Below are positions 4,505-57,680 of a DNA stretch of 64,000 nt, piece after piece. The notes beneath the pieces were generated by a model. That model saw only the letters and a program-made list of their open reading frames with translations, did no database searches and was not told the DNA's origin. A program made the position numbers and the translations under genes. Each line of letters begins with the position of its first letter. Positions within the stretch are counted from its first letter, which is position 1. The DNA is from a virus (lineage: Duplodnaviria > Caudoviricetes). The stretch is from IMG/VR virus record IMGVR_UViG_3300047375_000738; one strand, 5' to 3'.

Positions 4505-6550
4505 TTATTTACTTGTGGCTACAAAGATGCCATTCCAATCTGAAGGCAAATCCTGTGTTTTCATATATTCACAACGTTCAATCCACATATCGTAATACTT
4601 TTCCATCTTGTGATCAAAGTGTGTATACAACATCTTACACTTGTCTATAGCGTCATCAAAACGCTGCGCACGATAGTCTTCGTGCATTTGTTCATGTTTC
4701 TTCTGCGCACTACGCCATGCAGGATATGGCTTATCCAACACTGTGTAAATTTTAAGTCCTACACTTTTGCCTTTGACTTGCAAGTCATCTACTTTGAGGT
4801 AGAAGAAATCTGTTCTAGTTGCTTCGTATGTAGATTCTCCTACAAGTAACAAACACCCATACTCTTTACATTTGCTTTCTACTCTTGCTGCGGTGCTGAC
4901 AGCGTCTCCAAGGACATCATATGAATGACGTTTAGTACTTCCCATCTCACCAAGGTACCCCAGCCCTGTGTTGATGCCAGCGCCCATACCAACAGCAGGA
5001 CGACCATCAGGTATAATAACTTCTTCATTAAACTTCTCCACTGCTTTAAGCATGTCTAAGCCACACTGTACTGCTGTACGAGGATGGTTAGGATCATCTA
5101 TAGGCGCATTGTGTATGTGCATACTAGCATCGCCTATGTACTTGATTATCATTCCGTCTGACTCTAACACAGGTTCTGTAATAGCATCCATGTAGCCATT
5201 CATAATACGTGTGAGTCCTTGTACGTCATCTCCAAAACTTTCTCCTAGTGGTGTAAATCCACGCAAGTCTGAGAATACAATACTTACATTACGCTTAGTG
5301 CCCAGTTTAATAAGCTCTGGCGACTCCTGTAGTAGTCTAACCACTGTTGGTGATGCATAACCTTCGAATTGCTTTTTGATGGCTTGCTTTTGTAAGAACT
5401 CGTCGACGAACTTGACAATGTATCGTTTGAGCCCAACGAGCAAGATGAAAGCACTGATAACAGCGCCATCGATAAGAATATTTTGTGTATTGAAAACATA
5501 TATGCTCCCTCCTATAAACCCGCCCACGGACAACACAAAGAAGGCTATGCCTACAAATGTCCAACGGGCGAGTATGATTAACAAAACGCCGGCTGCAACT
5601 AGAGCTGCTAGTTCTGCCCACTGCTCTGCGTCTGGATGTCTGCTAATATTTGATTCATTAAACACTGTTCCTAGCATTGCTGCCTGTATTTCGTGTGGAA
5701 ATACACTGCCTGCTGCTGTTGCTAGTGGCTGTGTAAGCCCTGCTGCTGTTGGTCCTACAAACACTATACCGCCAGCAAAGTCATCTGGTAAGTCAACTGC
5801 GCTCACGCTTTTGCTGCGCTGACTCCAGTCTATCCATACTTCGCCTGTGGGGCTTGTTTGTATTATACCATATGCTGGTATGCGTAGTTTATCTACACCC
5901 ATAGGTGATAGTTTAATTTGGAAGCTAGGATCGCCTGCTAGTACACGTAGCACTTCCATAGTAACATTTGGATATAATGTACCACTAGATTCAACTACTA
6001 GAGGTATACGTCTAGTAACACCGTCTACTTCCGGCCAACTGTTTGTTATTCCACTACCTACTGCGTTGAATTCAATATCTGGTACATTTGCGATGATTCC
6101 TGGAACACTAGGAATAGTATAAAGAAAGTCGCTGTTAACAATAGTAGCGCCTGGATTGACTGGTTCATTTTTGTTGTCCTCCGCACCTAACATAGTAACT
6201 ATAACAGGTAATTGCTGCATTGTCAAGCCTAATGTAGCATCTTCACCTGACCTGTCTTCTTCCGACATCAATACATTGAAAACCACTAGTCCAGCGCCTC
6301 TGGCATATAAGTCCTCTATAAGGCTACCATAATCACCTCTCGGCCACGGCCATTGTCCGTAAGCCTCTAAACTTGGTTCATCGATGTTCACTGTGTAAAT
6401 GTTGTTTTCAACAGGTTGTTGATTTACAATAAGTGTATCAAAGTAGCGTAGTCGTATGCTTTCTATAAATGCTGGATTAAGATAGTATACATAACTCAGC
6501 ACACCTAATAATAAAACACTCCAAAGCGGGCTGAACAGTACTTTTCTCAT
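4505..6550 (-). CDS. CHASE2-domain class III adenylate/guanylate cyclase
   Basis: CHASE2 motifs (IDEPSL..YGQWPWPR, EVDGVTRR), 3 TM helices, FSDLRGFT, KYIGDA, GINTG, GDAVSTAARVES. Confidence 0.9.
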   Translation of the reverse strand: MRKVLFSPLWSVLLLGVLSYVYYLNPAFIESIRLRYFDTLIVNQQPVENNIYTVNIDEPSLEAYGQWPWPRGDYGSLIEDLYARGAGLVVFNVLMSEEDRSGEDATLGLTMQQLPVIVTMLGAEDNKNEPVNPGATIVNSDFLYTIPSVPGIIANVPDIEFNAVGSGITNSWPEVDGVTRRIPLVVESSGTLYPNVTMEVLRVLAGDPSFQIKLSPMGVDKLRIPAYGIIQTSPTGEVWIDWSQRSKSVSAVDLPDDFAGGIVFVGPTAAGLTQPLATAAGSVFPHEIQAAMLGTVFNESNISRHPDAEQWAELAALVAAGVLLIILARWTFVGIAFFVLSVGGFIGGSIYVFNTQNILIDGAVISAFILLVGLKRYIVKFVDEFLQKQAIKKQFEGYASPTVVRLLQESPELIKLGTKRNVSIVFSDLRGFTPLGESFGDDVQGLTRIMNGYMDAITEPVLESDGMIIKYIGDASMHIHNAPIDDPNHPRTAVQCGLDMLKAVEKFNEEVIIPDGRPAVGMGAGINTGLGYLGEMGSTKRHSYDVLGDAVSTAARVESKCKEYGCLLLVGESTYEATRTDFFYLKVDDLQVKGKSVGLKIYTVLDKPYPAWRSAQKKHEQMHEDYRAQRFDDAIDKCKMLYTHFDHKMEKYYDMWIERCEYMKTQDLPSDWNGIFVATSK

Positions 6551-6837
6551 TTTTTAATTCCTAACAACTTTGCTTTCATTGCGGCCGCAGAGGGCGACTC
6601 TTGTGGTTTGGATTCGGCACTCCCCGTTCGTACTCTACTACTGGGTTGTAGTTTGGAGGGTGCTTCTTGCGAAATCCCCGATGAGGTATTATTAAGCGTT
6701 TCTCTGACTCGGGCAATTCTTGCTTTGTGTTCTTGTTTGCGCTGGTGAAGGTAGGCTTCAAGTAATTTCTCCTGAAACTTTTCCTCCACCATATTTTCTA
6801 TATGTTCTTTGAACAACCATTCGCTTATCCATTTCAT
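6547..6837 (-). CDS. hypothetical protein
   Basis: TAAATA-4-ATG start, overlaps cyclase start. Confidence 0.65.
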   Translation of the reverse strand: MKWISEWLFKEHIENMVEEKFQEKLLEAYLHQRKQEHKARIARVRETLNNTSSGISQEAPSKLQPSSRVRTGSAESKPQESPSAAAMKAKLLGIKK

Positions 6838-6849
6838 ACAGTATTTATT

Positions 6850-8847
6850 TTAGAACTTCCAAGTAAACCCTGCGTTTACAGTTGTACTTGTATTATCGCC
6901 TGCTGTAATTCTGTTAACACCGGCTGCAATACCTATGTTTTCATTAATAGCATGATTTACACCTAAACCTATACGAGTTGTTCCTGCATCGTCAAAATCT
7001 CTAGCAATATTTGCTGTTACTATATCGTTGTCAATATTGATACCAATTGTAGGATAACGATATGTTTCGCTGTTGCCTGCATCTAGTAATGCTGCTTGAA
7101 CATCGCCAGTCTCAGCAAATGCATCGTGACTTTTTGTACCAATAGTATATCCAGCAAACGGACGAACTATACCAGTTGATTTTTCTACTGTAACTGTTGC
7201 CCATCTATCGCTTGAAGTAGTAGATCCCATTGCACTAAAGTCTCCAATAGTTCTATTGTACTCTAAGTCTGTGTTTGCAGCATTTACCTGTCCTCGAACT
7301 GTAATATCGCTGTCATCAATATGTTTACCTGCACTTAAACTTAATACTGTTGTAGACATGCTACCTGTACTACCTTCACCAGTTATATCTGTTGTAATAC
7401 GATTTATACCTAAACCAATAGTCATACTATTATCAGTCACAGCATTATGTCCTAATCCAAACACTCGAGACTCAGCACTATATCCGTTACTCATATCATG
7501 GTTAATACGTCCTGCTGTAAATCCATCACCTATACCTACGCTGCTATGTGGACGCAATGTTAACATTTGATCCATTTGATCCATACGTCCTGTAAATGCA
7601 CCTGGATCTGTAACGGTTACAACATCATCTGCTCTACTTGCTGTAGTGACTGTTGGTGTAGCGTCTGTAACAACTTCGCTACCATCACTCATTGTTGCTG
7701 TAGTTCTAACAAAACTAGTTGTAGTGATTGTCATTGGTGTTGTTACTGTTGTAGTTGTTTCTCTAGCAATAGTTTGTACACCTTCTGCTACACTGCTATC
7801 GTGTGTTGTTTGTGCTGCTGTAAGTACTGGCAACGCTGTATTAACTGCTTCACTACTGCTGGTAATAGTTTCTGTACTTGTACTAACTACTGTAGGTTCT
7901 GCTGCGCCATCTGCTGCGTCTGTAGCACTACCAACATCTTCTAATGTACCCCAACTACTGATGTCACCACCGCCACCTGCGCCTGCTGTAATAGCAGCAT
8001 CGGCAGCATCAAACGCACTTGGTCCAAATATGTATGCGTAACTTGCTGTAAGTATATCGCCTGTGCTTACATCGGCCCAGTTCCAACTTAGTCCAATAGT
8101 GTTGTCGCCTCTGTTTGTGTTTGACTCAGAGTCAAAAGAATTTTCTGTATAACCATCTGCCTCTGTTGACCAGCCTGTAATACCTGCATCAACATTAGAG
8201 TCTGTAGAATAAAGTCCTAACGCATAGCGTGATACTGTTGCTTCTGCAAATGCTACATTACTATCTGGAATAACACCATAACCTAATACGTTGTCTGTAG
8301 CACTTGTGTCGCCAGTTTCTGGCATAGCATCTGGATCAATAAAGCGTCCAAAACTTAGTGCGGTAGCATCACTGCCTGCTGTAATCTGTGTGCCGATCTC
8401 AATGTGTTCTGATGTAGCACCTAAAGTATATGTGTTTTCTATTTCCCAACCACTGTGTGCTGAATTTGTACCAGTCCAAGTAAGTGAATTATCACCGTTT
8501 GTTAAACCATCTGCATCTACCCAAGTACTTCCGCCTTGGTTATTATTTTTGCTGTTAGTACCATCTATCTTGATAGCAAAGCCATCAAACGGTGAACCTG
8601 GTGTTAGGTAGTCGCCTTGTGCGCTATCTGCTGGAAATGTGCCTGAACCTGTGCTGTCAAACTGTAGTCCTGGACGAGTGCTTCCTCCTGATCCAAAAGT
8701 ACCTGCGTCACCATTGACTCCGGCTTTTACATAACTGTTTTCAAGTATACCCATGCCTGTTGCTGTTGTACTCATGCTACTCGTATCTGCCAATGCAGTA
8801 GTACTAAGTAGTGCTGCCATTATACTGGCAATCGCTATTCTTTTCAT
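6850..8847 (-). CDS. autotransporter-like outer-membrane protein
   Basis: signal peptide, passenger region, Thr-rich linker, about 250 aa amphipathic beta C-terminus ending GFTWKF. Confidence 0.7.
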   Translation of the reverse strand: MKRIAIASIMAALLSTTALADTSSMSTTATGMGILENSYVKAGVNGDAGTFGSGGSTRPGLQFDSTGSGTFPADSAQGDYLTPGSPFDGFAIKIDGTNSKNNNQGGSTWVDADGLTNGDNSLTWTGTNSAHSGWEIENTYTLGATSEHIEIGTQITAGSDATALSFGRFIDPDAMPETGDTSATDNVLGYGVIPDSNVAFAEATVSRYALGLYSTDSNVDAGITGWSTEADGYTENSFDSESNTNRGDNTIGLSWNWADVSTGDILTASYAYIFGPSAFDAADAAITAGAGGGGDISSWGTLEDVGSATDAADGAAEPTVVSTSTETITSSSEAVNTALPVLTAAQTTHDSSVAEGVQTIARETTTTVTTPMTITTTSFVRTTATMSDGSEVVTDATPTVTTASRADDVVTVTDPGAFTGRMDQMDQMLTLRPHSSVGIGDGFTAGRINHDMSNGYSAESRVFGLGHNAVTDNSMTIGLGINRITTDITGEGSTGSMSTTVLSLSAGKHIDDSDITVRGQVNAANTDLEYNRTIGDFSAMGSTTSSDRWATVTVEKSTGIVRPFAGYTIGTKSHDAFAETGDVQAALLDAGNSETYRYPTIGINIDNDIVTANIARDFDDAGTTRIGLGVNHAINENIGIAAGVNRITAGDNTSTTVNAGFTWKF

Positions 8848-8901
8848 ATTTTACCCTCATTGTTTGGATGCCGGTTGCGCCCTCACGCCGCGGTCCACAC
8901 T

Positions 8902-9243
8902 CTATTTAAGCCTAATCTCTACTCCTAAAACTACGCCGATATCTTCACTTTCTATGCCTGGTGCTATAAACATTCTCATTTTACCTATGTCATATGTGCC
9001 TCTAATATAAGGAGTAAGCGAGCCATTGTTGTAGCCTGTTACAAATGCAGCTTCAAAACCAAAATTGTTTATTTCTTGTCGATGTCCTGCATATACGCTT
9101 AAATTTTCTACACTATTATAATAGGCGCCTGTAATAAATTTTTCATGTGTGTATCTTAGGTGTGGATGAAAAGCGTTATATTTTTCATCAAATCCAATAT
9201 GGCTACTGAGTCCTAAACTAATCGTTAGTGCTTCTAATATCAT
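8902..9243 (-). CDS. small outer-membrane beta-barrel (PagP-like phage family)
   Basis: N..HPHLRY, GAYYNS, S.YAG, TGY motifs; terminal beta strand. Confidence 0.55.
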   Translation of the reverse strand: MILEALTISLGLSSHIGFDEKYNAFHPHLRYTHEKFITGAYYNSVENLSVYAGHRQEINNFGFEAAFVTGYNNGSLTPYIRGTYDIGKMRMFIAPGIESEDIGVVLGVEIRLK

Positions 9244-9352
9244 CTTGCTTTTCCTCGTAATGAGTGTCTATTTTGGTTGTTAACTTTTCAGCAGCCCACC
9301 AACCAAATGCTGTAAAAAATCCTGCTATGAAAAATGTCAATACAGTTTCCAT
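9218..9352 (-). CDS. 44-aa membrane peptide
   Basis: TAATG-coupled to curlin-like gene; one TM helix. Confidence 0.55.
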   Translation of the reverse strand: METVLTFFIAGFFTAFGWWAAEKLTTKIDTHYEEKQDDIRSTND

Positions 9353-10188
9353 TAGTTGTGCTGCTGAACACTTACAACACACCCGTTTGGGTTTGTACAT
9401 ACACCACTTAGGCTAAATGATTTAGCAGAAGTGTCTGTTTGTTGACTAACTGTTACGTTATAGGCAGGACCATATATGCTTTCTACACTAATGTTTGCTG
9501 ATGCAGAATTCATTCCACGTTGGTTTAAATCAATTACATTGTAATTTCCTGACAACTCAATGTCAGCAGTTTTTTGTCCGCCATTGCCTTTCTGATAAGT
9601 TGTAACATCATTTCCAGTACCTGAAATATCAATGTCTAATAGATGCTTTTGATTTCCTCTTTGCGTCATTTCAACATCGTTGCTATTACCAGTAATTTCT
9701 GCGGTTAATTCATGCCTACCATAGCCTGAAGTTTGTTGATCAGTTTGTGCTGCTTTAATATCGTTATAATTTCCAGTAATTGTAACTGTAGCAGTGTGAT
9801 CACCGCCCTCTGCTAAGTCAATTGTACCATCAGCATGTTTACCTTGCCATATTACCAAGTCGTTGTTATCACCAGTAACTCGAGAAGTGATCATTCCACT
9901 ATCACCGCCGCCGCCTTGATAGAAATCTACATTATTGTTATCACCGTCTAACATTCCCTGGACGCCATGATACATACCTGTTTGTACCATATCAATCGTA
10001 TTGCCATCGCCTTCAATACCTTTAGTCTCACCAGGTATTCCACTGATATAATTTACATCCCCATCTTGAGTCAAGGTTAATGCATTATTGTCACCAACTT
10101 GGTATACATAAATTTCATTTGCATTACTAGTAGTCGTTTTGATTGATAGTAATATTGTTAGCGCCACCGACGCCCACTTGATATCCAT
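9352..10188 (-). CDS. curlin-repeat secreted protein (CsgA/CsgB-like)
   Basis: signal peptide, ANEIY, repeated G-x-x-N-x5-Q-x-G (GNSNDVEMTQRG, GTGNDVTTYQKG, GNYNVIDLNQRG). Confidence 0.75.
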   Translation of the reverse strand: MDIKWASVALTILLSIKTTTSNANEIYVYQVGDNNALTLTQDGDVNYISGIPGETKGIEGDGNTIDMVQTGMYHGVQGMLDGDNNNVDFYQGGGGDSGMITSRVTGDNNDLVIWQGKHADGTIDLAEGGDHTATVTITGNYNDIKAAQTDQQTSGYGRHELTAEITGNSNDVEMTQRGNQKHLLDIDISGTGNDVTTYQKGNGGQKTADIELSGNYNVIDLNQRGMNSASANISVESIYGPAYNVTVSQQTDTSAKSFSLSGVCTNPNGCVVSVQQHN

Positions 10189-11269
10189 ATTTGTAAAATC
10201 CTCCCTGCACCATGTCAACACTATAACTATGACTTTGACTTAGTCTTAATTGAAAAAAGTGTTGATCGCCTTCTGCTCTCCTTACTATAAAATAAGGATA
10301 TTCTTCATCGTAAAATATATTTGTTTCTGGATCTAGTCCAAAAAACTTTTCTTGAAAAAATTGTATGTTTTGAGTTCCTAGCTCATCAAACCACTGTGCT
10401 AATATTTCAGCAAGTTGTTTTTCCATAGCATCTATAAACTCTGAATTTAGATAACTTGTATTATCTAAGTCTGTAACCCAGATGTTTTTAATTCCTTCTA
10501 CAAGCGGATCTTTATCAAGTTCGTCAAACTTTAAAAAATCAATATCTAACAAATTTGTGTTTGGATATTGCCTTACTATTTCCTCTGTGTAAGGAGAAAC
10601 TTTTCTTATGATTAACATTGCGGTAAGCATATCTTCTGGCAAGTTTAGTGTAATTGGTCTTTTAGGCACTGCTCCTGCGTGTGCTACAACTGTAGTTTGA
10701 AATGCTTGATTCATAATAACTGTGCCTGCGTCTGATTCTACTTCAATTTCGCCAACAACACACAGTCCTGCAACATCGCAACTAGGCAATAGTGTTACCA
10801 TACTACCGCCAATCTCGTCTATAATCATCATAAAATCTGTGCCACGCACGTTGATAGTTGCACTTGGTGTTCTAATGTTTACTCTTTGTCTGCTGTTTTT
10901 TGCAATTTGTCCACTAGCATAACGTACTGCACCTAGTGTTGCTTTCATTGACAATGCACCTTTTTGTGTAGCAGGATCGTATATAAACTCATCTATAGTC
11001 ATACGACTATTTTCTGTAACATCAACCCTAGTGTCATCAATAAAATCTAAACGTAATCGACCTTTGCCTGTTACAACATTGTCGTTCATTTGTAACCCAA
11101 GACCTACTTCGCCTGTGTATGCTTCTTTGTCTCGCTTGATTGTACTGCTGCCTTTAGATTCGGCAATCTCGCCAATAGGAGATGCTTTGGCCATATCTAC
11201 ATACGCCAGCGCAAAAAATATTATGTATAAAAGTCTAGTCGGTTTGTGTAATATCAACTGTGTTACCAT
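10127..11269 (-). CDS. FecR-domain protein
   Basis: N-terminal TM/signal, D.V.TG.GR....F.DDT, ENS...IDEFIYDP, RTPSATINVRGTDF. Confidence 0.85.
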   Translation of the reverse strand: MVTQLILHKPTRLLYIIFFALAYVDMAKASPIGEIAESKGSSTIKRDKEAYTGEVGLGLQMNDNVVTGKGRLRLDFIDDTRVDVTENSRMTIDEFIYDPATQKGALSMKATLGAVRYASGQIAKNSRQRVNIRTPSATINVRGTDFMMIIDEIGGSMVTLLPSCDVAGLCVVGEIEVESDAGTVIMNQAFQTTVVAHAGAVPKRPITLNLPEDMLTAMLIIRKVSPYTEEIVRQYPNTNLLDIDFLKFDELDKDPLVEGIKNIWVTDLDNTSYLNSEFIDAMEKQLAEILAQWFDELGTQNIQFFQEKFFGLDPETNIFYDEEYPYFIVRRAEGDQHFFQLRLSQSHSYSVDMVQGGFYKYGYQVGVGGANNITINQNDY

Positions 11270-11987
11270 CCCCAGTCGAAGTCATGTCTACCAAGTTGTC
11301 GTTGATGCCACTTTGTGTAATAGTGTATACACTGCCAGCGCCTGTAATGTCTAATGTTACAGTATGCCCTAAACTATCGCCGTTACCTGATATTGCTAAA
11401 TCAACAATGTTACCAGGTGAACTGGTAGTTAATGTGTTATCATTTGCACTTGTAATTGTTGATCCACTTCCTGTTGAAGCACTGTTATCAATTTCAATAG
11501 TAATGTTAGCATCAGTGCCATCTAAGTCCATGTCAACTAAGTTGTAGTCACCGTCTACTGTGAAGTTAATTGTAGCATCGCCAGCGTCATTGGTTTCGCC
11601 AATCTTGAAGTCAAACGTATTCAAGTCGCCTGTTGTAGTAATATTTAATGTTACACTATCGCAATTTCCGCCACCTGCTGTTGCTGCGCTATCACACAAT
11701 AAGTCAACATTGTTACTGTCTCCAGTAAACTGCCATGTACCTGTGTAGCTATCACCTGCAATAATTGCATCAATGGTATTAGTATCGCCAGTTTGTGTTA
11801 TACTAAACACCATGTTGTCGCCATAGAGGCCAGCGTCTGTAGTACTGTCTCCAATTTTGTTATCCTTGCCATCTTGTGAGATGTCCAAATCTAAACTATC
11901 GCCAATTTGTGTGATGTATATCTCGTTTGCATGTGCTGCACTTACGAGAACCCACGATAGTATAAAACTATATAATGCTGCCCTCAT
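11235..11987 (-). CDS. curlin-repeat secreted protein
   Basis: signal peptide, ANEIYITQIGD, repeats SQDGKDN/TQTGDTN/TGDSN/TQSGINDN/TGDGNTVDITQ. Confidence 0.7.
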   Translation of the reverse strand: MRAALYSFILSWVLVSAAHANEIYITQIGDSLDLDISQDGKDNKIGDSTTDAGLYGDNMVFSITQTGDTNTIDAIIAGDSYTGTWQFTGDSNNVDLLCDSAATAGGGNCDSVTLNITTTGDLNTFDFKIGETNDAGDATINFTVDGDYNLVDMDLDGTDANITIEIDNSASTGSGSTITSANDNTLTTSSPGNIVDLAISGNGDSLGHTVTLDITGAGSVYTITQSGINDNLVDMTSTGDGNTVDITQTD

Positions 11988-12093
11988 TTTTGCTCCTCTG
12001 GGGTTTCCCCTAAATGTATTTACCTCGTGCCTCAACGAATAATAAATACACTTATATTTAGTGTAAATATATTTACAGATAAAGGCTATTATA

Positions 12094-12372
12094 ATGAAAA
12101 CTGCATACGTAATCAACGCTTTGAAACAAGCAGAACAAAAACACAAAGAACAAGAAGAATTCTGGAACTTGTTTAACGAGATTTGGTCTGATGAAGTGCC
12201 AAAACAATATTCTTTAAATGACGAAGTTGATCAATTACAGATTGATAAGATACAACGAGCGTTAGATGAAAACGATGGCAACAGAACTTATGCTGCAAAA
12301 TCACTCGGTATTAAAAGAGAAACACTATTAGCTAAAATGAAACGCTATTGTTTAAACTGCCACAAGTCTTGA
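12094..12372 (+). CDS. Fis-family HTH protein
   Basis: IQRALDENDGNRTYAAKSLGIKRETLLAKMKRY (HTH_8 pattern). Confidence 0.8.
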   Translation: MKTAYVINALKQAEQKHKEQEEFWNLFNEIWSDEVPKQYSLNDEVDQLQIDKIQRALDENDGNRTYAAKSLGIKRETLLAKMKRYCLNCHKS

Positions 12373-13127
12373 TTTGCACCTTGATAGATTAATTCAATGA
12401 CGCCTTGTTCAATTGCTTCACGCACTGCATAGTTTGTAGGTTCGTTAACACTATAACCTGTTTCAATTTCTAATGCCTTTGTGCCTAAGTCTAAGAATTT
12501 AAATACATCTGCTCCAGCACGATAACTTGCTATTGTTTTTTCTGATGCAACGCTAACTAGTACACGCCCTGTACTAACACTTACAATACGCATTGCTACG
12601 GTTACTGTGTCGACTCTGTATTCTGCTGCTGTTCCAATACCAAAGTATCTAGCGCCAGTGCCTCCTGTAGTAACATTTGAGTCATACCCAACTATACCGC
12701 CTTCGATAATTATACCAGCAAATTTCATTGGTGCTAACGGTGAAGCATTATCTTTTTCGTAGTTTTCTCTAGTGTTACGTATTAATTGACGCTCGCGAAT
12801 AATGTTGTCCATGCCCACACGTTCTACAACTTCAAACCATGTGCCGTTGCCTGCTTGTAACAATGCATCTATTACCCAAACTTCAGCGCCTTGTGTTACA
12901 GCACTTGACAGGTTAGCAACATTTTCTGCTGGCTTACGCTGCCCAGTTTTGTCTGTAAAACTATAAACAGCAATTGTCATCACAGGACCATTTAATGGCT
13001 TTAGTTCGTTAAGTTCTTCAACCATTGGATTATCTTGTATCTTTGCAGGGCTTTGTAGCTGTGCTGGAATATTTCCTGCGCTGCATCCTGCAAGCATTAA
13101 TGCTGTAATTAACAATAAATGTTTCAA
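12345..13127 (-). CDS. csgG: curli secretion channel CsgG
   Basis: lipobox LAGC; AVYSF.DKTGQRKP, AVTQGA, ERVGMDN...ERQ.IR, GGIVGYD, YR.D.VTV..R.V.V.TG.V. Confidence 0.9.
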   Translation of the reverse strand: MKHLLLITALMLAGCSAGNIPAQLQSPAKIQDNPMVEELNELKPLNGPVMTIAVYSFTDKTGQRKPAENVANLSSAVTQGAEVWVIDALLQAGNGTWFEVVERVGMDNIIRERQLIRNTRENYEKDNASPLAPMKFAGIIIEGGIVGYDSNVTTGGTGARYFGIGTAAEYRVDTVTVAMRIVSVSTGRVLVSVASEKTIASYRAGADVFKFLDLGTKALEIETGYSVNEPTNYAVREAIEQGVIELIYQGANQDLWQFKQ

Positions 13128-13597
13128 AAGTTAAAGTCTCCTGCACCAGGAATAGTTATTTCTGTGTAGCCATCTTCGCCATCAATAATAAGTGTAATAC
13201 TACCATCAGTTTCATCTTTGGTCCATGTAATAGTAGAGCCTTCTACTTCGGTTGTACCAGTATTCGAACACGCTGGCTGGTCTTCTTCGCCACATGCTGC
13301 AAACATATTATCGACCATTTGTTTTGATAGTGTAGCGTAGATACGTGATTCTAAGTTACGTATAAACTTGTTTAGCACTGTGTTTTCTAGTTCACGCTCT
13401 AAACGATCAGCTTCACGTTGTGCTTCATCGTCAATGTCTTTTTGTCTATTAAACTGTAATTGCTCCATACTTAGTACATGAGCACTATACCCATTGCCAC
13501 TAAACGAAGGTGATTTAAAACTATGCACCAAATCGGCACTTGCTGCTGGTGCATAGTTTGTCATTATAAAAAAGATTATCAAGAATGTGTATCGCAT
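13124..13597 (-). CDS. csgF: curli assembly protein CsgF
   Basis: mature N-terminus LVHSFKSPSFSGNG resembles CsgF F.F.NP.FGG; adjacent to csgG. Confidence 0.8.
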   Translation of the reverse strand: MRYTFLIIFFIMTNYAPAASADLVHSFKSPSFSGNGYSAHVLSMEQLQFNRQKDIDDEAQREADRLERELENTVLNKFIRNLESRIYATLSKQMVDNMFAACGEEDQPACSNTGTTEVEGSTITWTKDETDGSITLIIDGEDGYTEITIPGAGDFNF

Positions 13598-13601: not shown

Positions 13602-13739
13602 TTATTTATCTAGCAGGTCCTTGCGCTTGTTGAAAAACATATCCCAGAACATCCAGAACAATGCGCTAAGTTGTATTAGGATTGCACCAATACCTACTCC
13701 GACAAAAAAACAAAATGCTACGTGGATAAAAAGTTCCAT
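13602..13739 (-). CDS. small membrane protein (45 aa)
   Basis: own translation MELFIHVAFCFFVGVGIGAIL...; TAATG coupling. Confidence 0.5.
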   Translation of the reverse strand: MELFIHVAFCFFVGVGIGAILIQLSALFWMFWDMFFNKRKDLLDK

Positions 13740-13885
13740 TACTTGCCTCCTGCATTAGCTTGTATGATTAACCAAAGCGGTCCGCATAGTGCAATAAGAG
13801 CACCAAGCACAACATCGCCTAGTGCAATAAAAGTAATACCTAAGATTGTACATATGATAGCGTAAATAAACATTCCTTGTGTCAT
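13739..13885 (-). CDS. small membrane protein (48 aa)
   Basis: own translation MTQGMFIYAIICTILG...; AGGAG SD. Confidence 0.55.
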   Translation of the reverse strand: MTQGMFIYAIICTILGITFIALGDVVLGALIALCGPLWLIIQANAGGK

Positions 13886-13979
13886 AGCGTTTCTCCTTTG
13901 TGTTGCTATACATATAATATAGCATTAGAGCCGCAAGGATACAACCTAGCAAAAGTAGGGGTTTTGGTATAATAAGTTT

Positions 13980-15059
13980 TTAGAGGTCTGTGCCTTGCTC
14001 AACATCTTTTGTTGAGATAGTAGCAAGTTGTTTGAACAGAGGACCTGTCTCGACTATAATTTTATGTCTTTCAGCTCTTTTTGATCCATCATCTCTAACT
14101 TTTGCTGCACCATAACTATATCTAATCATAAACAAAAAATTCCTTTGCTGGCCGATTTCGTGTACATATAGTGTTGGTCTTCCACCTAATTTCAAACTAG
14201 TCTCTAAGTTTACATTAGCAAGATTTTTACGCATAGTTCTAATTGTTTGTGCAGTGTAATCGTTTTTACCTAAATTAACAATATAAACTCTTGGATCTTT
14301 CTTTGTAAGATGCTCATCCATAAATCCAGCAACATTTGTAATTAGTTGTATTTCTTTAGCAGGATCATCACCTGCTGTAAGTGCGTTCAAGTCATCACTA
14401 ACTTGCTTCATTATTGAAACAACATGTTCTGCCGGATTTTCTTCGTAGTTCTCAATCGGCTTTAGTGTGACGCCCATTTCTTTAAAGAACACTTGCATAT
14501 TTTCAAATGTTCTAGGCGATGCTTGTCCAATAAGATTACTTCCTGTTTTTAGACTCCAGCCTTTAATTGTACGTTCTGTGCCATCTTCTTTTTTGTAAAT
14601 TAAAAAGATGTCTGCTTTTGTACCTTTTTGATCTTCTTCACCTGCTGCTTTAACAACTATTCTATCTGGCTTTCCGTTTTCGTAAAAGATTTTACTCCAT
14701 TTTTTAGCATAGACATCACTGTTTGCAAATCTTACTGCACCATCAAGTTCGTCTGACATTACGCTAGTAAGTGCTTCAATATCTTTTGCATCTGCAATAT
14801 TTTTCTTATTACTAATAATATTTTTAAAAGCAATGCTATCGCCTTCGTCACTCATAAATGTTAGGCTTAGGTCTTTAGTTTTAGAAGTTCTACTTAATAC
14901 TGCTTTGACTTGCTCAGCTGTAACTTGTTCATCACCAATAATCATTTTTGCAACAACTGCACCGCCTAGCAAGTACTCTCCCATGTGTCCACGAGTTGAG
15001 CCGTGCTTTAATTTAGCTACTTTGGCTTCTGTAATATTTTTAAAATCACTGTAACGCAT
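13980..15059 (-). CDS. putative PD-(D/E)XK-like nuclease, possibly virion-packaged
   Basis: GEY...KADIFL...GWSLKT catalytic-like pattern; N-terminal ITE leader. Confidence 0.45.
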   Translation of the reverse strand: MRYSDFKNITEAKVAKLKHGSTRGHMGEYLLGGAVVAKMIIGDEQVTAEQVKAVLSRTSKTKDLSLTFMSDEGDSIAFKNIISNKKNIADAKDIEALTSVMSDELDGAVRFANSDVYAKKWSKIFYENGKPDRIVVKAAGEEDQKGTKADIFLIYKKEDGTERTIKGWSLKTGSNLIGQASPRTFENMQVFFKEMGVTLKPIENYEENPAEHVVSIMKQVSDDLNALTAGDDPAKEIQLITNVAGFMDEHLTKKDPRVYIVNLGKNDYTAQTIRTMRKNLANVNLETSLKLGGRPTLYVHEIGQQRNFLFMIRYSYGAAKVRDDGSKRAERHKIIVETGPLFKQLATISTKDVEQGTDL

Positions 15060-32171: not shown

Positions 32172-34481
32172 TCACCAAGGTAGTGCAATATTGTATGCGT
32201 ATACTACTCCGGTTTTGTCTGCTACGTATAGTTTTGTTCCGTATCCATTATACCATATTGAAGCTGGTTTGTTATTTGCTATCATTGGAATGTCTACACT
32301 TTCTATTGCTGTGATAGTACCGCCTAAATCCCACGGAGTGCTATTTTCAAACAAATGCAACTTTCGTTGATTAGTTACAAATAATATATATTTTCCGTCG
32401 TGACTAACCTCAAAGCCATTTATTTGATAATCGTCGCCAACTGGTATTTCGTGAGTTCCTCCACGTGGTATTACAAACTGCGCACTAGTTCCAGTATCAA
32501 GAGTCCATCCGCCTGTTGCATTTTCTACACTAGAGTTAGTTGAAGTCATTTGTCTTAACCAATAGATTTCTGGAGATGAAAAATCACGTAACAATACAAA
32601 TAATTTATAGTCAATATTATTATTACCGTCTGCATCTTGTCTATAACGAAGATCAATAACATCCGTTGCTGCTCTATTAAATGTTGCATCACCTGCTGGG
32701 CCATTATCTTCTACCCACGATGTAATATTTCTTGTAGACGGTGGACCGAGAGGAGCAAAGGGAGACGGAGGTTCGCTTGATATATATGTCAAGTGGTACT
32801 CTCTGGATTGTCCAGTGCCTTCGGTTTGAATTGTAACAGCCCTCTTATCTGTAGTACTAGTCATACCATGCATAGGCCAGCTGTTGTGACTGGTGTTTTC
32901 TTTATAACCAAAATCTGACAAGCCGCTGGTGCCTAAATTGTCTTGGTTGAAGCTCCATGTTTCTCTTAACAAAGTACCCGTGCCGTATTCTTTGAAAAAA
33001 CTTAAATATCTAGAAGGAGAATTATAGTTTAAATTATTTTCCATTAATAAAGCATTTGAGTTTAAATAATAAGCTGGTAGGTTTGTCTGCCTAGTTCCGG
33101 TCATTATACCTAACGCTTCGTTTGCACCTCTTGCAGGAAGGAAAGTCAATGTACTCATATCATAAGGTGTGCTCAATGCGCCTATATGTAGTGTATTGCC
33201 TGTGCTCCACCCTTTGATAAGATAAAAAATAGATCCTGCCGGATCGCCGTTTGGAAGCACACCACCATTTAACTCTTCATTCCATGCCATTCCTACCATT
33301 AATCTACTTCCATGGACATCACCTAAATCGTGACTAACTACAGTTTCTGTTGATAGTGTGCTTAAATCAAAACCTGTACTCATAGTTCTTGTTCTAAAAT
33401 TCCAATCTTGTATGTCATTACAATAAACTACTTTTGTTCCGTCATTGGTGATATAACCGCCAAAGAATTCACTTGAAGTATCTGATTGCGTAGGTGTTGA
33501 AGACATAGTAGTCAAATCGTAGCCTGTGCTTAATGTATATTTAAATAGTCCGCCGCCGGTACCATCTGTACCAACTATTAATTCAGTACCGTTACTATTA
33601 AATTTTAATAATGTTAATGTGCTGCTAAAAATACTAATTCCATAACCACCAAAAGTAGTTGTCTGTGTGGGTGTAGTGTTAATTGATGTAATATCCCATG
33701 CAGTATTAAGAGTGTATTTTTTAATATAGTTTCGTGTTGAACCAAGTTTAGCTGTTATAATAGTTGTACTATCAATATATATTGTATGTGTTCCTATATC
33801 AGACTGACTAGCCACGGGTTGTTGTTGTTGTGATTCAAATAGTCCTTGCCGATTTTGTAGCCAGTCAGGATCTGCATCAGTATCGCCTGGAAAAAATCTA
33901 AAATTAGATTGATAATACTGTTTGCCGCTGTTGGCAGAGGCAGATGCAAGAAATCCTCTATTGTTTGGCATAACACTAGGATTGTAAATGATCTCTCCAA
34001 GGCCGCCAGACCCTACACTCTTTAATCCAGTAGCTTCTAAGCCATGTAGTCGAGGTCCTACACCGATACTTGGATACTCGATAGTAGAAATTTTATATAG
34101 TCTTGGATTAACACTTGTATTATTAATAGTAACCGATACTGATGTTGCTAAAACATCAGTACCTGGTGTATTTTGAATGTACGTATATAGTTCTACTCTA
34201 AAAGTTTCTGCATCATCATCAAAGCTACTAGCGTCTGCGGTAGGAGTAATTGTAAAAGAAGCAGCATTACTGTTAATAGTTATTACTCCATCTGTGTCAT
34301 CTAGCTCACTTTGATTACTTGCTTCCCAGTATAGATCGGTTCCATCAGATATATTAGTTGTAGTCACATTGAACGTTAATGCACTTCCTTCATCGATATT
34401 GTTAGCTGTTGGAACAATTGCATAAGTGCTATTGTATCCGGTTGAGCCAGATGCTGCCATGAGCATTTTGGTTATAATCAT
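32172..34481 (-). CDS. virion tail-associated/receptor-binding protein
   Basis: Calx/Ig-like N-terminus, repeated Y.LSTPWD.ST beta-propeller-like units; ATGA-coupled to fibre gene. Confidence 0.65.
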   Translation of the reverse strand: MIITKMLMAASGSTGYNSTYAIVPTANNIDEGSALTFNVTTTNISDGTDLYWEASNQSELDDTDGVITINSNAASFTITPTADASSFDDDAETFRVELYTYIQNTPGTDVLATSVSVTINNTSVNPRLYKISTIEYPSIGVGPRLHGLEATGLKSVGSGGLGEIIYNPSVMPNNRGFLASASANSGKQYYQSNFRFFPGDTDADPDWLQNRQGLFESQQQQPVASQSDIGTHTIYIDSTTIITAKLGSTRNYIKKYTLNTAWDITSINTTPTQTTTFGGYGISIFSSTLTLLKFNSNGTELIVGTDGTGGGLFKYTLSTGYDLTTMSSTPTQSDTSSEFFGGYITNDGTKVVYCNDIQDWNFRTRTMSTGFDLSTLSTETVVSHDLGDVHGSRLMVGMAWNEELNGGVLPNGDPAGSIFYLIKGWSTGNTLHIGALSTPYDMSTLTFLPARGANEALGIMTGTRQTNLPAYYLNSNALLMENNLNYNSPSRYLSFFKEYGTGTLLRETWSFNQDNLGTSGLSDFGYKENTSHNSWPMHGMTSTTDKRAVTIQTEGTGQSREYHLTYISSEPPSPFAPLGPPSTRNITSWVEDNGPAGDATFNRAATDVIDLRYRQDADGNNNIDYKLFVLLRDFSSPEIYWLRQMTSTNSSVENATGGWTLDTGTSAQFVIPRGGTHEIPVGDDYQINGFEVSHDGKYILFVTNQRKLHLFENSTPWDLGGTITAIESVDIPMIANNKPASIWYNGYGTKLYVADKTGVVYAYNIALPW

Positions 34482-36907
34482 GCCATTGCGTCTCCGGCTT
34501 GAAACCCAAACCAAGATGTGCCATTGAATGTAGTAAACACATAAATGTCCAGTTCTCCATTATTTGGCACGTCAGGCTGAACGCCACCAGACCATAATAC
34601 ACTAGACGGCCAAGTAATGCTAAAAGTTGGATTACTTGAGCTCCTATTTAGATATAATGTAAAAGACTCAACTCCAGATGCATATCCTTGAAATACGAAA
34701 GTTGTACTGCCGACTAATGTTATAGAAAAATGATTTGCACTACTAGTATCTAGAAGCTTTGTTGATTGCACTGCGCCTTCGCTGCTAAAAAATTCAGTTA
34801 CATTAGACTTTAAATTAATACTGCCTCCACCGTTTGCAGTAATATCAATATCGCCATTAGTTGTTGAGGTAGTAAGACTATAAGTTTGCATGTCAAGATT
34901 ACCGCCTAATTGTGGCGATGTATCGTCAACAACATCGCCGCTGCCGCCATCTGTAATTCCATATCCGGCAAGTGTTGTTGGTGTTCCTGTTAGATCAGAA
35001 AATGCAACACTTGTAAGATAGTTACTATCGTTTGTCCACTGGCTAATGTTACCACTTTTATTTATTAATGTATCAGTTGAACTTGGTGTAAATATAATGT
35101 CACTTGTTAATGCAAAGGTTCCTGGTGTTCCACCTGGTATACTATGAGTATTAATTGTGCCTAAACTTGTAATATCATATGTTTGTGCGTCAAGGTTACC
35201 ACCTAATTGTGGAGTAATGTCAGCAGCTACACTAGCGATTCCTTTTGTTGTCCAAATATAATCGCCGGTGTTACTGTTTAAAGTTGGATCCCAACCTAAA
35301 ACGTCACCTGAGCCTGCAGTACTAGTATTTAAATGCGCATCTACACTTGCATCTGCATATCCTCCTCCACCGCCGCCGGAAATATCAGAAAGTAAGGCAT
35401 AGGTACCTCCGCTACCTGTAGGAAGAGTGTGTCCGTTTAGACTACCAGTAATTGTAACACCATCGTTGCTGGTTGCTAATCGTTCATTATTGTCGTAGTA
35501 TAATGTACTTGCTGAACTTTTAAACTGAGCAAATTTACTTCCGCCTGAAGATTGGACAATAGTTGTAGAGGATATAATTTTTGTTGTACCAGAGCCGTCG
35601 CCAGCTCCTGTATCTTTTATAATACTATCAGTGCCATCATGAAATATTTCAAAATCTGCCGATGCACCTAGTGCTAGTTTGCCATTATCAGCAAAGGTAA
35701 TACTACTGCCATTTGCAACAGGTGTTGTGATAAATCCTGCATCATTGGTTAGATCGCTATTATTAAGTCCTGATATGCTTGTAATGTAACCGCTATCATT
35801 GGTTAACTGGCTTATATTTTCGCCATTTATACTAGTAAGATAGCTGCTCAAGTCAGGTGGTGTATATTGAAATTGTCCATTAGTGTTGTCATAAGATACA
35901 CTGCCCGATCCACTTGCGGTTGCACTAGCAATAAAACTTAAACTGTTTAATTGTATGTAACCTGGGTTACTAAAATTAACAGTAATGTTACCTTCTATAT
36001 CACTAGTTGTTGATATAGAAGTTCCGCCTTTGATGCTAAATGTTTCACCTCGAGAAATACTAATGCTAGTAGAATCGTCTGCTGTAATGTTAAAAACATT
36101 ATCTTCAATACGACTAAACCTATCAATAACTGTAGTTGCAAAATTTGGATCGTCTCCTAATGCTGCTGCTAGTTCATTTAACGTATTTAATGCACCAGGA
36201 GCACTATCAATTACATTAGCAATAGCACTATCGATATTTGCTTGATTAACTCCGTCAGTGATACCAAATCCTGCTAAAGTTGTGGGCTTGCTTGTTAAAT
36301 CGGCAAAAGCCACACTAGTTAAATAACTACTTAGATCGGGCGGAGTGTAATCAAATTCGCCAGTAGTGTTGTCGTAGGATAACGCTGCTGTTCCTACTGC
36401 ATTTGTTGTTACACTAATCTCTGTTAAATTAATATAGTTAGCATCATTTGTAAATGCACTTACATCCGTAGGAACTCCTGTGAGACTACTGAATGCAAAA
36501 TCTTGTGTAAAACCATTTGTGATTGTTATACTATCGGTTGCAGAATCTGTTGAGATAGAGATGTTTGTTCCAGCTACTAAAGTGATTGTATCTGTTTTAC
36601 TATCTGCATCAATATTTGTTTGCCCAGAAACTGCAAAGGTACTAAAAGCATTTTGATTTATCTCGCCGCTTGCTTGAGTAGCTGCAAGTTGATCCCATCC
36701 TACACTAGTATACCCTTCAAATAAATTAAGTGTATTATTATATCTTAAAGAACCTAAAGTAGGAGAACTATCACGCTCTGCTGTACTACCAATTGGAATT
36801 TGTACAGAACCACTTACACTTGTGCGAGGTGCAATAGCATCAAAATTATCATCCATTTCTGTATAGGTTAACGCCGAACCTTTAGTAGAACGTTTTGTTA
36901 CAGCCAT
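34478..36907 (-). CDS. tail fibre protein
   Basis: K.S.LT..EMD.NF, repeats YTPPDLSSYLTS, PTTLAG.GITDG, PQLGGNLD, D.AP..L.TL.ELAAALG.D.NF. Confidence 0.8.
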   Translation of the reverse strand: MAVTKRSTKGSALTYTEMDDNFDAIAPRTSVSGSVQIPIGSTAERDSSPTLGSLRYNNTLNLFEGYTSVGWDQLAATQASGEINQNAFSTFAVSGQTNIDADSKTDTITLVAGTNISISTDSATDSITITNGFTQDFAFSSLTGVPTDVSAFTNDANYINLTEISVTTNAVGTAALSYDNTTGEFDYTPPDLSSYLTSVAFADLTSKPTTLAGFGITDGVNQANIDSAIANVIDSAPGALNTLNELAAALGDDPNFATTVIDRFSRIEDNVFNITADDSTSISISRGETFSIKGGTSISTTSDIEGNITVNFSNPGYIQLNSLSFIASATASGSGSVSYDNTNGQFQYTPPDLSSYLTSINGENISQLTNDSGYITSISGLNNSDLTNDAGFITTPVANGSSITFADNGKLALGASADFEIFHDGTDSIIKDTGAGDGSGTTKIISSTTIVQSSGGSKFAQFKSSASTLYYDNNERLATSNDGVTITGSLNGHTLPTGSGGTYALLSDISGGGGGGYADASVDAHLNTSTAGSGDVLGWDPTLNSNTGDYIWTTKGIASVAADITPQLGGNLDAQTYDITSLGTINTHSIPGGTPGTFALTSDIIFTPSSTDTLINKSGNISQWTNDSNYLTSVAFSDLTGTPTTLAGYGITDGGSGDVVDDTSPQLGGNLDMQTYSLTTSTTNGDIDITANGGGSINLKSNVTEFFSSEGAVQSTKLLDTSSANHFSITLVGSTTFVFQGYASGVESFTLYLNRSSSNPTFSITWPSSVLWSGGVQPDVPNNGELDIYVFTTFNGTSWFGFQAGDAMA

Positions 36908-42670: not shown

Positions 42671-44380
42671 CTACGCACGTACACGGTAAGAGTAAGTGAA
42701 TAGGTCTTCTGTTAATGGCGTTAGGTTTTTGCACTTGACAACAATGCTAGGCGATAACGAACCGTCGATGTCGTCTGTTGTTGCTGAAAACACAAAGTTC
42801 GCTAGATAAGTTGTGTCACCTGTAAAATCAGTTGTTTGATTCACTAGCAAGGTAGTGTTGTTGCTATCGTAATGAAATTCCATAGTTCCTGTCTGTCTTA
42901 AAAAAATGTTTGCATCTACGCCGTTTACTCGTTGTCCTTCGTAAAGATAGTCTAAGTAAACTACTCCTTCATTATACAACGGTAATTTAAGAATGTCAAC
43001 CGGATCTGTGCCACCATCTACCTGTGTATTTCCGATAGTGATTGAATGGCGTGTTTTGTTATCAAAATTTACTCTACCTGCAACATCAGCTATGTAGTTG
43101 GTTCCAATGTGCGGATCAATTATACTACTATCGCCTGCTGATCTATGTGGTGACAAACGTAGTGTTCTTTGGAAGTGATCGTTTTCAGTCTTGTTGTCCA
43201 TATCATTTGTAAAACTAATAACAGGTGTAACACATTGGCCTTCGTCGCCACCATCGTTGCCACAGTTTAAGAATGTATTGTTTTGACTGGTGTTGTAGTT
43301 TCCATTTTCAAATAGAAGTGTGTCTCTATAAACTAGATCAAATTTACTATCTTGAATAATATTATAACTAGGACCAGTCGCAAATCCATTTGCACTATTT
43401 AATGATCCTACGCCCATTACAAATGCTTGCCAACAAATACTTGCATTGATATTTGTCCATACATTTTTATCTGCATCGTGCGGTGCTTCAACAATGTGAT
43501 AGAAGTTATCGCAATCAATATTTGTAAACGTATTTTCAATGCACTGTGCATTACCAGTGCCGATCATATCAAACACTACGTGAAAACTTTCGTCAGCATC
43601 TCCAAAGTCGCCGCCAAATGTCCACACACCTTCAATTTTTAAATCACTAAAGTTACTACGTGCAACTTCACGCATTTGGAATACTGCACTAAATCTATTG
43701 TTGCGTAGTGTCATTCCGCTGATATTATTGTGTCTTACTTGTGTTGTATCAGAACTTGTTACTGGAACTGTTTGTGCTAACCCTGTATAAACACCAGGCT
43801 GGGCATTACCGTTTGCAAATGCAAACATTGGTTTTGTACTTGCGGTAGCTGTAGTATCTGATTCGGTGTAAAGTATAGTTTTACCAACTCCGTCACCAAC
43901 CAAACTTACAAGTGGCGGAATGTAAATTGTACTGCGTAGAATGTATTCGCCTGCTGGCACCTTAAGAGTTACTTTTTCTTTGCTTATTAGACTACGTAAA
44001 TAAAGTGCATCAATTGCTGCTTGGAACGCCGGCGCATCATCAGTACCAAGTCCATCTCCAACTGCACCAAAGTCAATTACTGTTGTTGTGGCATCAAGTT
44101 TAGCTTCAAGTGTTTGTGCTATCTTTGCAGTCGAACCCCAAAGGTTGCTAGTATTCTTATAGATATAAGAATTAGCTAGTGCAAAGATATCGCTGTGTTG
44201 TGTAAGAATTTCAGTATTACCAACTGCTGGGGCGCCTTCGCTAACTGCACCGTTACCGATATACATCTTTTGTGTATCAATTGCCCAACCAATTTCGCCG
44301 CCGGCTAACTGCGGAATACCAATTTCAGTTAGTTCTCTACCGCGTCTGTTCTGTATGCGAGAAATTTGAACAATGGCCAT
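42671..44380 (-). CDS. virion structural protein with beta-helix domain
   Basis: MAIVQISRIQ.RRG/PQLA.GEIGW N-terminus; DFGAVGDG..DD..AFQ.AID pectate-lyase-3-like. Confidence 0.75.
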   Translation of the reverse strand: MAIVQISRIQNRRGRELTEIGIPQLAGGEIGWAIDTQKMYIGNGAVSEGAPAVGNTEILTQHSDIFALANSYIYKNTSNLWGSTAKIAQTLEAKLDATTTVIDFGAVGDGLGTDDAPAFQAAIDALYLRSLISKEKVTLKVPAGEYILRSTIYIPPLVSLVGDGVGKTILYTESDTTATASTKPMFAFANGNAQPGVYTGLAQTVPVTSSDTTQVRHNNISGMTLRNNRFSAVFQMREVARSNFSDLKIEGVWTFGGDFGDADESFHVVFDMIGTGNAQCIENTFTNIDCDNFYHIVEAPHDADKNVWTNINASICWQAFVMGVGSLNSANGFATGPSYNIIQDSKFDLVYRDTLLFENGNYNTSQNNTFLNCGNDGGDEGQCVTPVISFTNDMDNKTENDHFQRTLRLSPHRSAGDSSIIDPHIGTNYIADVAGRVNFDNKTRHSITIGNTQVDGGTDPVDILKLPLYNEGVVYLDYLYEGQRVNGVDANIFLRQTGTMEFHYDSNNTTLLVNQTTDFTGDTTYLANFVFSATTDDIDGSLSPSIVVKCKNLTPLTEDLFTYSYRVRA

Positions 44381-55922: not shown

Positions 55923-56074
55923 CTCCATAAGAAATACCTCCTTCTTGTTATACGAACATAAAGTCCGTCTGTTATTTAAATATACCGAGACCCGGTATTA
56001 TAACCCAACTAAACAGTTATAACATCACTTAACTTTGGATTTGATAAATAATTTTACCATAAAGTGAGTATATA

Positions 56075-57277: not shown

Positions 57278-57680
57278 AACGTTATGGCTAATCGCAGGCT
57301 TCTTTTGCTTGGGTATGGCTTATGTAGGTGTAGTAGTACCTGGAATACCATTTAGTATTTTCCTAGTAATGGCTGCATACTGCTTTAGTAAAAGTAGTCA
57401 GCGGATGCATGACTGGTTATACAATCACAAATACTTTGGACCGTTCCTAACTAATTGGGTACAAAAGAAAGTGTTTCCGACCAAAGGCAAATACCTAATG
57501 GTAATAGTAATGGCAAGTTCTCTTGCATTCCTTTGGTTTACAACAGAGAATATTAAAGCTGTTGCGTGGAGCGGAGGATTTATGGCACTAGTTGCTATAT
57601 GGGCATGGCGCTACCCAGGTACTGTTGCAGAACAGGAACGCAGAGTCAAAGCAGGCGAAAAGGTTGCTTGGTTCAAATAA
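57264..57680 (+). CDS. YbaN/DUF454 membrane protein
   Basis: G..G.VVPG.P...F...AAYCF.KSS.R.H.WL..HK.FG. Confidence 0.85.

Follow-up and report, generated by a model that had tools for sequence, protein, structure and literature searches.

A type VIII secretion system (T8SS), the curli export system, is already on record for phages of marine bacteria. The HTVC008M record (2013 accession) lists CsgF, CsgG, a "curlin minor subunit CsgB", and, after two hypothetical proteins, an adenylate cyclase, and the Melnitz record lists CsgF, CsgG, a curlin repeat protein, a FecR domain protein, a second curlin repeat protein, and a cyclase; HTVC008M and the Melnitz strains were the only cultured phages found to carry the cassette. 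While CsgA and CsgB were called missing by Zaragoza-Solas et al. 2020 (PMC7029224) and Buchholz et al. 2022 (PMC9004378), CsgA/B, FecR, and adenylate cyclase were "explicitly identified" in podo- and myo-pelagiphages by Wittmers et al. 2022 (PMC9599517), who reported metatranscriptome hits as well as T8SS parts at all 65 GOV2.0 stations and suggested that the module came from Alphaproteobacteria. According to the same paper, csgE, csgC, and csgD are likewise missing from alphaproteobacterial and viral modules, FecR and the cyclase lie outside bacterial T8SS operons, and a histidine kinase upstream of csgF is given for the podophage version only. Here, we analyzed the corresponding genes in a 64,000-nucleotide stretch of viral DNA (Caudoviricetes; IMG/VR record IMGVR_UViG_3300047375_000738), which we refer to as the window. 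The first-pass annotation of this DNA had proposed a new system and had given the subunit genes as unclear in the literature. The latter is correct for PMC7029224 and PMC9004378 but not for PMC9599517, where they are identified, and the proposal of a new system has to be withdrawn, as the same cassette is present in the HTVC008M and Melnitz records, is described in PMC9599517, and had thus been in print for phages of SAR11 and OM43 since 2022 at the latest.

As judged from its sequence, the window contains one more copy of the pelagiphage-type T8SS module, a divergent one that has inserts specific to its clade. Read along the minus strand and leaving the inserts aside, the gene order is csgF-csgG-curlin-FecR-curlin-adenylate cyclase, with phage genes all round; these are the same genes in the same order as in the pelagiphage/methylophage module (HTVC008M, Melnitz, HTVC023P-type podophages, and pelagimyophage metagenome-assembled genomes (MAGs)), with which the window also shares a marine viral context and the absence of csgC, csgD, and csgE. 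Compared with the Melnitz and HTVC008M proteins, the identities were 49-51% for CsgG, 50-55% for CsgF, 38-53% for curlin-1, and 34-51% for the cyclase (51% to the Melnitz and 34% to the HTVC008M cyclase). The window differs from the pelagiphage module in an opposite-strand Fis-type helix-turn-helix (HTH) gene that splits csgFG from the curlins, and in three inserts that are unmentioned in PMC9599517, namely, a transmembrane (TM) peptide, a 113-aa protein, and an autotransporter-like protein. It also differs from the podophage version, since the open reading frames (ORFs) upstream of csgF (13602-15059) gave no Pfam match and no histidine kinase; this leaves the assignment to the myophage-type module intact because PMC9599517 gives the kinase for podophages only. 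For comparison, we used a viral set of 80 IMG/VR contigs found with the CsgG protein (57-84% identity, some contigs of 130-195 kb), of which 52 contain a complete module spanning csgF to the cyclase. In 34 of the 52 the order is csgF-csgG-cur1-FecR-cur2-AC, while the others contain the window's inserts in various combinations, and the exact layout of the window is present in two.

The csgF-csgG pair, recognized in the first pass from the sequence alone, was confirmed by profile matches of both proteins (Table 1). For CsgF, the PF10614 profile was matched over positions 4-132 of 132, the signal peptide ends in ASA, and the mature N-terminus is DLVHSFKSPSFSGNGYSAHVL; a single-sequence phmmer search of the PDB with this protein gave nothing significant and no CsgF chain. 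CsgG aligned over its full length with the E. coli CsgG structures (E 8.8e-52), and this match together with its lipobox identifies it as a predicted lipoprotein of the curli pore family. The TTG start of csgG overlaps the csgF stop as TTGA (4-nt overlap). Export signals, either a signal peptide or a lipobox, were present on all module components, whose genes overlap, while no Pfam match to CsgE, CsgC, or CsgD was observed among the module's own ORFs, which were the ORFs searched, in line with the earlier failure to recognize these genes.

The putative substrates of this pore are two signal-peptide proteins, curlin-1 and curlin-2. As had been noted from the sequence, both begin with NEIY-x-x-Q-x-GD after A-x-A-type cleavage. 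This NEIY stretch is exactly what Pfam aligns to the curlin repeat, and therefore both curlins start directly with a repeat. A mature start of the form N-[ED]-I-Y-x-x-Q-x-G was observed in 80/80 curlin-1 and in most curlin-2 orthologues, and the Q, N, and G of the repeat positions are invariant columns in both curlin alignments. When the suggested hidden Markov model search with the curlin repeat (PF07012, cut-off 20.7 bits) was carried out, both proteins scored above the cut-off.

Curlin-2 is the clearer of the two. Its signal peptide ends in SNA, and the mature protein of 255 aa begins with NEIYVYQVGD and contains nine G-x-x-N-x-[aliphatic] units, seven of which complete G-x-x-N-x-[IVL]-x3-Q, in line with the repeat build noted earlier. 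Curlin-2 is also the one that ends in the Cys pair CTNPNGC (C-terminus ...CTNPNGCVVSVQQHN), and these residues, C241 and C247 (C-terminal C-x5-C), were invariant in 28 sequences. An AlphaFold2 (AF2) model built from the family alignment (per-residue confidence, pLDDT, 86.5; overall confidence, pTM, 0.85) consists of strand-turn-strand units of ~22 residues. When the curlin-2 profile was searched against the PDB, it matched the CsgA of Pontibacter korlensis (8c50, E 1.5e-12), and in an exhaustive VIA-align search of 48,161 chains with the model the best match was again 8c50_A with Z 23.1, while the next chain reached Z 16.6. The alignment with 8c50_A covers 224 residues at 21% identity, with a high root-mean-square deviation (8.5 Å) that indicates solenoids differing in twist or bend. 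P. korlensis CsgA, a cellular protein of Bacteroidota, has 363 residues and more repeats than curlin-2, and the two have Asp-rich repeats G-x-D-N-x-A-x-I-x-Q-D-G in common. The similarity to E. coli CsgA was marginal (phmmer E 0.46, VIA Z 11.5). We conclude that curlin-2 is related, in sequence and in modeled fold, to a CsgA fibre subunit of known structure. Single-sequence phmmer searches of the PDB with both curlins gave nothing significant, nor did Foldseek searches of the PDB and AlphaFold/Swiss-Prot with both models, which returned generic beta-helices with TM-scores < 0.4. A three-copy complex prediction for curlin-2 stacking scored 0.00 against a mark of 0.42 and, being without controls, counts neither way.

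Curlin-1 (signal peptide ending in AHA; mature protein of 230 aa beginning with NEIYITQIGD) was assigned to the curlins because it has a borderline Pfam match and is homologous to the curlin-2 family (hhalign 99.7%, E 5.5e-27). It was found in 80/80 viral loci with an almost constant mature length of 210-232 aa. In an alignment of 46 sequences the mean identity was 58%, and N1, I3, Y4, Q7, and G9 were invariant, as were both residues of an internal Cys pair (C78 and C89 of the mature protein). In contrast, the curlin-2 family is variable, with a mean identity of 31% and a mature length of 203-374 aa. Given the homology of the two families, we regard curlin-1 as a conserved but divergent paralogue of curlin-2. 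The AF2 model of curlin-1 (family alignment; pLDDT 85, pTM 0.84) is all strand-turn-strand, again in units of ~22 residues, and P. korlensis CsgA was not among the best 50 structural matches listed for it. Of the beta-solenoid models that had been asked for, the predicted one for curlin-2 has a solved curlin fibre subunit as its best match, while the one for curlin-1 is a predicted solenoid that generic solenoids match better than E. coli CsgA does.

In a side observation on the second curlin, seven of the viral loci encode a version of ~385-495 aa, in which an unrelated domain (...YYSTGG...LKSELEDLGFTVTG...) after the signal peptide replaces the NEIY repeat, with proteins of ~484 aa among them. 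These long second curlins are fusions of the putative fibre subunit to another module.

Taken together, the gene content supports a predicted self-contained T8SS with a pore, a cap, and two curlin-type Sec-exported substrates. We hypothesize, with a probability of roughly 0.6, that the phage pore, cap, and two curlins produce curli-like fibres on infected cells. During infection, the host Sec system would carry the parts to the periplasm, where CsgG would be lipidated and form an outer-membrane channel that CsgF would cap. Both curlins would pass through the CsgG channel unfolded and, outside the cell, would fold into flattened two-sheet beta-solenoids and stack as acidic curli-like fibres. 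As in the curli loci of Alphaproteobacteria, the ORFs of the module include no CsgE-like gate. An envelope or secretion state would probably be coupled to cyclic AMP (cAMP) by the FecR-domain protein in the periplasm together with the CHASE2 cyclase. The likely benefit would be an altered surface of the infected cell, leading either to aggregation ("sibling capture") or to the exclusion of other phages.

Several points weigh against fibre formation. At the pore, the constriction loop of the window CsgG differs from that of E. coli CsgG in the alignment; in what we take to be the E. coli numbering, Tyr51 is lost and Phe56 is changed to Leu. CsgE strongly boosts export in E. coli, and the phage module is without it. 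That the phage pore assembles in the outer membrane of the host is assumed. Among the substrates, curlin-1 is only barely over the PF07012 cut-off, it is acidic and Gln-poor (isoelectric point 4.05, net charge -35, 2.6% Gln), its profile found no relative and no CsgA in the PDB, and its model was matched better by a SufD-like flattened beta-solenoid (Z 16.9) than by E. coli CsgA (Z 10.7). As for experiments, Melnitz-infected OM43 cells showed no clumping in cytograms or transmission electron microscopy (TEM) (Buchholz et al., PMC9004378), and the searched literature contains no experiment in which a phage curlin formed fibres, bound an amyloid dye, or depended on CsgG for its export.

The points on the pore bear on a proposal by Buchholz 2022 (PMC9004378) and Zaragoza-Solas 2020 (PMC7029224) that CsgG, with or without CsgF, is used as a channel only, either for lysis timing through depolarisation or leakage or for the uptake of large solutes; the curlins would then be leftovers or have an unrelated role. 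In its favor, PMC9004378 reports that Melnitz infections produced no clumping and discusses a change at the constriction of CsgG, and the altered constriction loop and the lack of a CsgE gate among the module ORFs described above also fit this proposal. Nevertheless, the substrates are not conserved as one would expect of leftovers. Curlin-1, which is present in 80/80 loci, is about as conserved as CsgG (58% versus 62% mean column identity), and the second curlin is kept in 50 of the 52 complete modules. Unlike decaying leftovers, the curlins keep their signal peptides, the invariant Q/N/G positions, and the Cys pairs. Moreover, csgF orthologues were found in 80/80 viral loci, while a bare pore has no need of CsgF. 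Because the substrates are so strongly conserved, the channel-only proposal is weakened, and we consider it unlikely.

The acidity of curlin-1 bears on a second alternative, which involves the FecR-domain protein and the cyclase. The FecR gene lies between the two curlin genes and overlaps both, and its position is the same in Melnitz, HTVC008M, and the viral loci; the viral module usually ends with the cyclase gene. The FecR-domain protein has a signal peptide ending in AKA, is without a cytoplasmic anti-sigma part, and has exclusively viral clusters as its nearest Atlas neighbours. The exported acidic solenoids could act as monomeric or short cation-binding adhesins or probes that are read by FecR and passed on to the CHASE2 cyclase, with cAMP as the output and without amyloid. 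In favor of such a sensor are the fixed presence of FecR and the CHASE2 cyclase in the module, the overlap of the FecR gene with both curlins, the very acidic, Gln-poor curlin-1, and a structural match of curlin-1 to a Ca2+-dependent beta-helical antifreeze protein (3p4g, Z 12.4-12.5), although this match is non-specific. However, Asp-rich repeats are also present in the P. korlensis CsgA fibre, the best match of curlin-2, and because that solved fibre has such repeats, acidity is no argument against fibres. We regard the sensor as an improbable explanation.

The solenoid fold itself could be read as that of virion proteins, with the curlins as components of a tail fibre or spike, a role that many beta-helix proteins of phages have. 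Beta-helical tailspikes were among the structural neighbours of both curlin models (Z 10-13), and the window contains a tail-fibre-like gene (34478-36907). These tailspike matches were no better than those of any other beta-helix, however, and both curlins have cleavable Sec signal peptides, while tailed-phage virions assemble in the cytoplasm. In addition, the curlin genes are located between csgG and the membrane cyclase, and the cassette occurs as a unit in both myo- and podophages (PMC9599517) and also in a bacterial chromosome (the Henriciella contig L088 described below). A virion role is thus far less probable than either of the two preceding alternatives.

Within the fibre reading, the different evolution of the two curlins suggests distinct positions. 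Curlin-1 is most likely a pore-proximal subunit, a putative nucleator or anchor, because it evolves slowly, is constant in length, and is always present, while curlin-2 is most likely the distal, exposed subunit because it evolves fast and varies in its number of repeats. An extension of this idea would combine a division of labor with self-sensing: curlin-1 would be a nucleator or anchor docked to CsgF, with an internal disulfide, curlin-2 would be the exposed fibre, with a C-terminal disulfide cap and under diversifying selection, and FecR would be both gate and reporter, replacing CsgE as the periplasmic gate/chaperone and reporting the secretion load to the CHASE2 cyclase. We consider this full scheme doubtful. 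If it is true, a planktonic host without curli would receive cAMP-controlled surface fibres from its phage.

The genes of the region are listed in Table 1. Nearly all genes between 4505 and 13597 are encoded on the minus strand, in most cases overlapping or abutting one another.

Table 1. Features of the curli module and inserted genes in the window.
Feature	Coordinates	Strand	Product and match
csgF	13124-13597	-	157 aa; PF10614, E 1.3e-12
csgG	12345-13127	-	260 aa; PF03783, E 9e-53; lipobox LAGC
Fis-family HTH gene	12094-12372	+	92 aa; PF02954, E 1.5e-9
curlin-1	11235-11987	-	250-aa precursor; PF07012, 21.5 bits
FecR-domain protein	10127-11269	-	380 aa; PF04773, E 2.8e-8
curlin-2	9352-10188	-	278-aa precursor; PF07012, 37.6 bits
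single-TM peptide	9218-9352	-	44 aa; TAATG overlap with curlin-2
113-aa protein	8902-9243	-	no Pfam match; viral family
autotransporter-like protein	6850-8847	-	665 aa; signal peptide; no Pfam match
CHASE2 class III adenylate/guanylate cyclase	4505-6550	-	681 aa; PF05226, E 2.7e-35; PF00211, E 1e-17

The extent of the system is greater than the first-pass annotation had it. Its csgF, csgG, and curlins were correctly placed in the system, while FecR, the HTH gene, and the closing CHASE2 cyclase were overlooked. Likewise, the two curlins that it saw following csgF-csgG are both there but not adjacent, as the FecR gene lies between them and the HTH gene comes after csgG. The coupling of the 44-aa TM peptide that it described is accurate: the ATG shares one base with the TAA stop of curlin-2.

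The Fis-family HTH gene, located between csgG and curlin-1, is transcribed convergently with csgG, with a 28-nt overlap at the csgG 3' end. Homologues were present in 21/80 viral loci, either at the same site or just upstream of csgF. We regard it as an accessory of the module within this clade; it is not mentioned in the published module descriptions and could be the missing transcription factor of the module.

Homologues of the 44-aa peptide were found in two other viral loci (L017 and L018) directly upstream of the gene for the 113-aa, small barrel-like protein. In a separate observation, the TM peptide and the 113-aa gene form a two-gene cassette (8902-9352), which in L017 is located upstream of csgF. 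The 113-aa protein, an insert between curlin-2 and the cyclase without an evident signal peptide, belongs to a family with the conserved motifs YN-x2-HPH-x-R, GAYYNS, and VTGY. In the Atlas it has viral neighbours, and the only hint of PagP is a cluster at rank 42 (score 0.92), a weak lead; the gene was present in 13/52 complete viral modules. The autotransporter-like protein, inserted between the same two genes, has a signal peptide ending in ALA and the C-terminus ...FTWKF. PF03797 (Autotransporter) is carried by 55% of the members of a viral Atlas cluster near this 665-aa protein, whose gene was present in 10/52 complete viral modules.

Just upstream of the ribosome-binding site of curlin-1, we observed a short hairpin, TGGGGTTTCCCCTA, preceded by GGTAAATAC (11999-12012, 12039-12067). 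A sigma-70-like TTTACA-17-TATTAT is also located upstream of curlin-1, in a region where pattern matches are at background level. Because of the hairpin and the sigma-70-like sequence, the curlin genes may have their own promoter, apart from csgFG. Over the whole window, sigma-70-like and terminator-like pattern matches were at background level, and TATAAATA late-promoter boxes were not enriched (7 found versus 7.1 expected), with none near the module.

We compared the module with cellular curli systems. The E. coli/Salmonella system (csgBAC, csgDEFG) has in common with the window a CsgG that matches over its full length, the CsgF family, and two paralogous Sec-signal curlin-repeat substrates. 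In contrast to the window module, it has CsgE, CsgC, and CsgD; since these are missing, the window module is not of the enterobacterial subtype. The window curlins are also about twice as long as the E. coli subunits and strongly acidic. E. coli CsgA presumably has a Gly-rich N-terminal targeting segment before its first repeat, which the window curlins do not have.

The nearest cellular CsgG proteins were alphaproteobacterial, with 43-50% identity (Henriciella, Erythrobacter, Sphingobium, Methylobacterium, Bradyrhizobium, and Sphingomonas). Like the window, the alphaproteobacterial loci contain csgF-csgG with one to five curlin-repeat genes before or after it, and loci of this type without csgC/D/E are attributed to Dueholm et al. 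2012 in PMC9599517. The repeats of the alphaproteobacterial curlins beside csgG begin right after the signal peptide, as in the window, but with other motifs, and the N-[ED]-I-Y-x-x-Q-x-G-D start is confined to the viral clade. Among the alphaproteobacterial loci on long chromosomal contigs, FecR or cyclase occurs within 10 kb of csgG in only one, which belongs to a Henriciella MAG (L088, contig of 397 kb). Here, the csgF-csgG pair is directly followed, in this order, by genes for a curlin of 504 aa, a protein with a FecR domain, and a CHASE2 cyclase (6466-12489), in surroundings of TonB-dependent receptor and metabolic genes, and therefore the linkage of FecR and cyclase to a T8SS exists in a cell too. 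The FecR-type protein of L088 was present in one of 151 genomes of the MAG's family, namely, in the MAG itself only.

Several contigs labeled as MAGs (CsgG 51-69% identity) have the viral layout. A viral-type cassette was observed on twelve MAG-binned contigs, one of 142 kb, and the labels of those MAGs are Polynucleobacter, Rhodobacteraceae, Pirellulales, Legionellales, Sphingobacteriales, Saprospirales, Flavobacteriales, and Synechococcus. The contigs with the viral layout probably represent phage DNA that ended up in cellular bins, and any inference of host or origin would be misled by them.

Around the module, the window also encodes the tail-fibre-like gene mentioned above, a ribonucleotide reductase, an exonuclease, and a virion-protein-like gene, as well as a heme oxygenase and a PcyX-type bilin reductase. 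Outside the module, the DNA of the window had almost no matches among cultured phages, and searches with the DNA at 56000-63900 and the protein at 42671-44380 gave no useful phage relatives. The large subunit of the ribonucleotide reductase matched thousands of unrelated phages and thus gave no lineage signal.

At least 14 DNA runs, 12 of them labeled seawater or marine and 2 freshwater, contained the exact 4.4-kb stretch from 9218 to 13597 (99-100% of sampled words); the runs come from at least 12 studies, and we conclude that the phage population is widespread. Contigs with at least 99% identity were also present in four RNA libraries from four studies, covering curlin-1 in all four and also csgF/G, curlin-2, the autotransporter-like gene, and the cyclase. 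These contigs show no strand, ends, or level, may include DNA carry-over, and are uninformative for the parts that they do not cover; they are compatible with expression of the module and fit the published metatranscriptome hits, without being proof.

The idea of phage curli on ocean bacteria is already in print. The window copy could guide construct design through its confidently modeled subunits, its defined mature N-termini, and its conserved pairs of Cys residues. If the fibre hypothesis is true, free-living ocean bacteria without curli genes would grow surface fibres during infection, and this would be relevant to aggregation and the formation of particles, to exclusion between phages, and to the exchange of genes in the most abundant marine heterotrophs.

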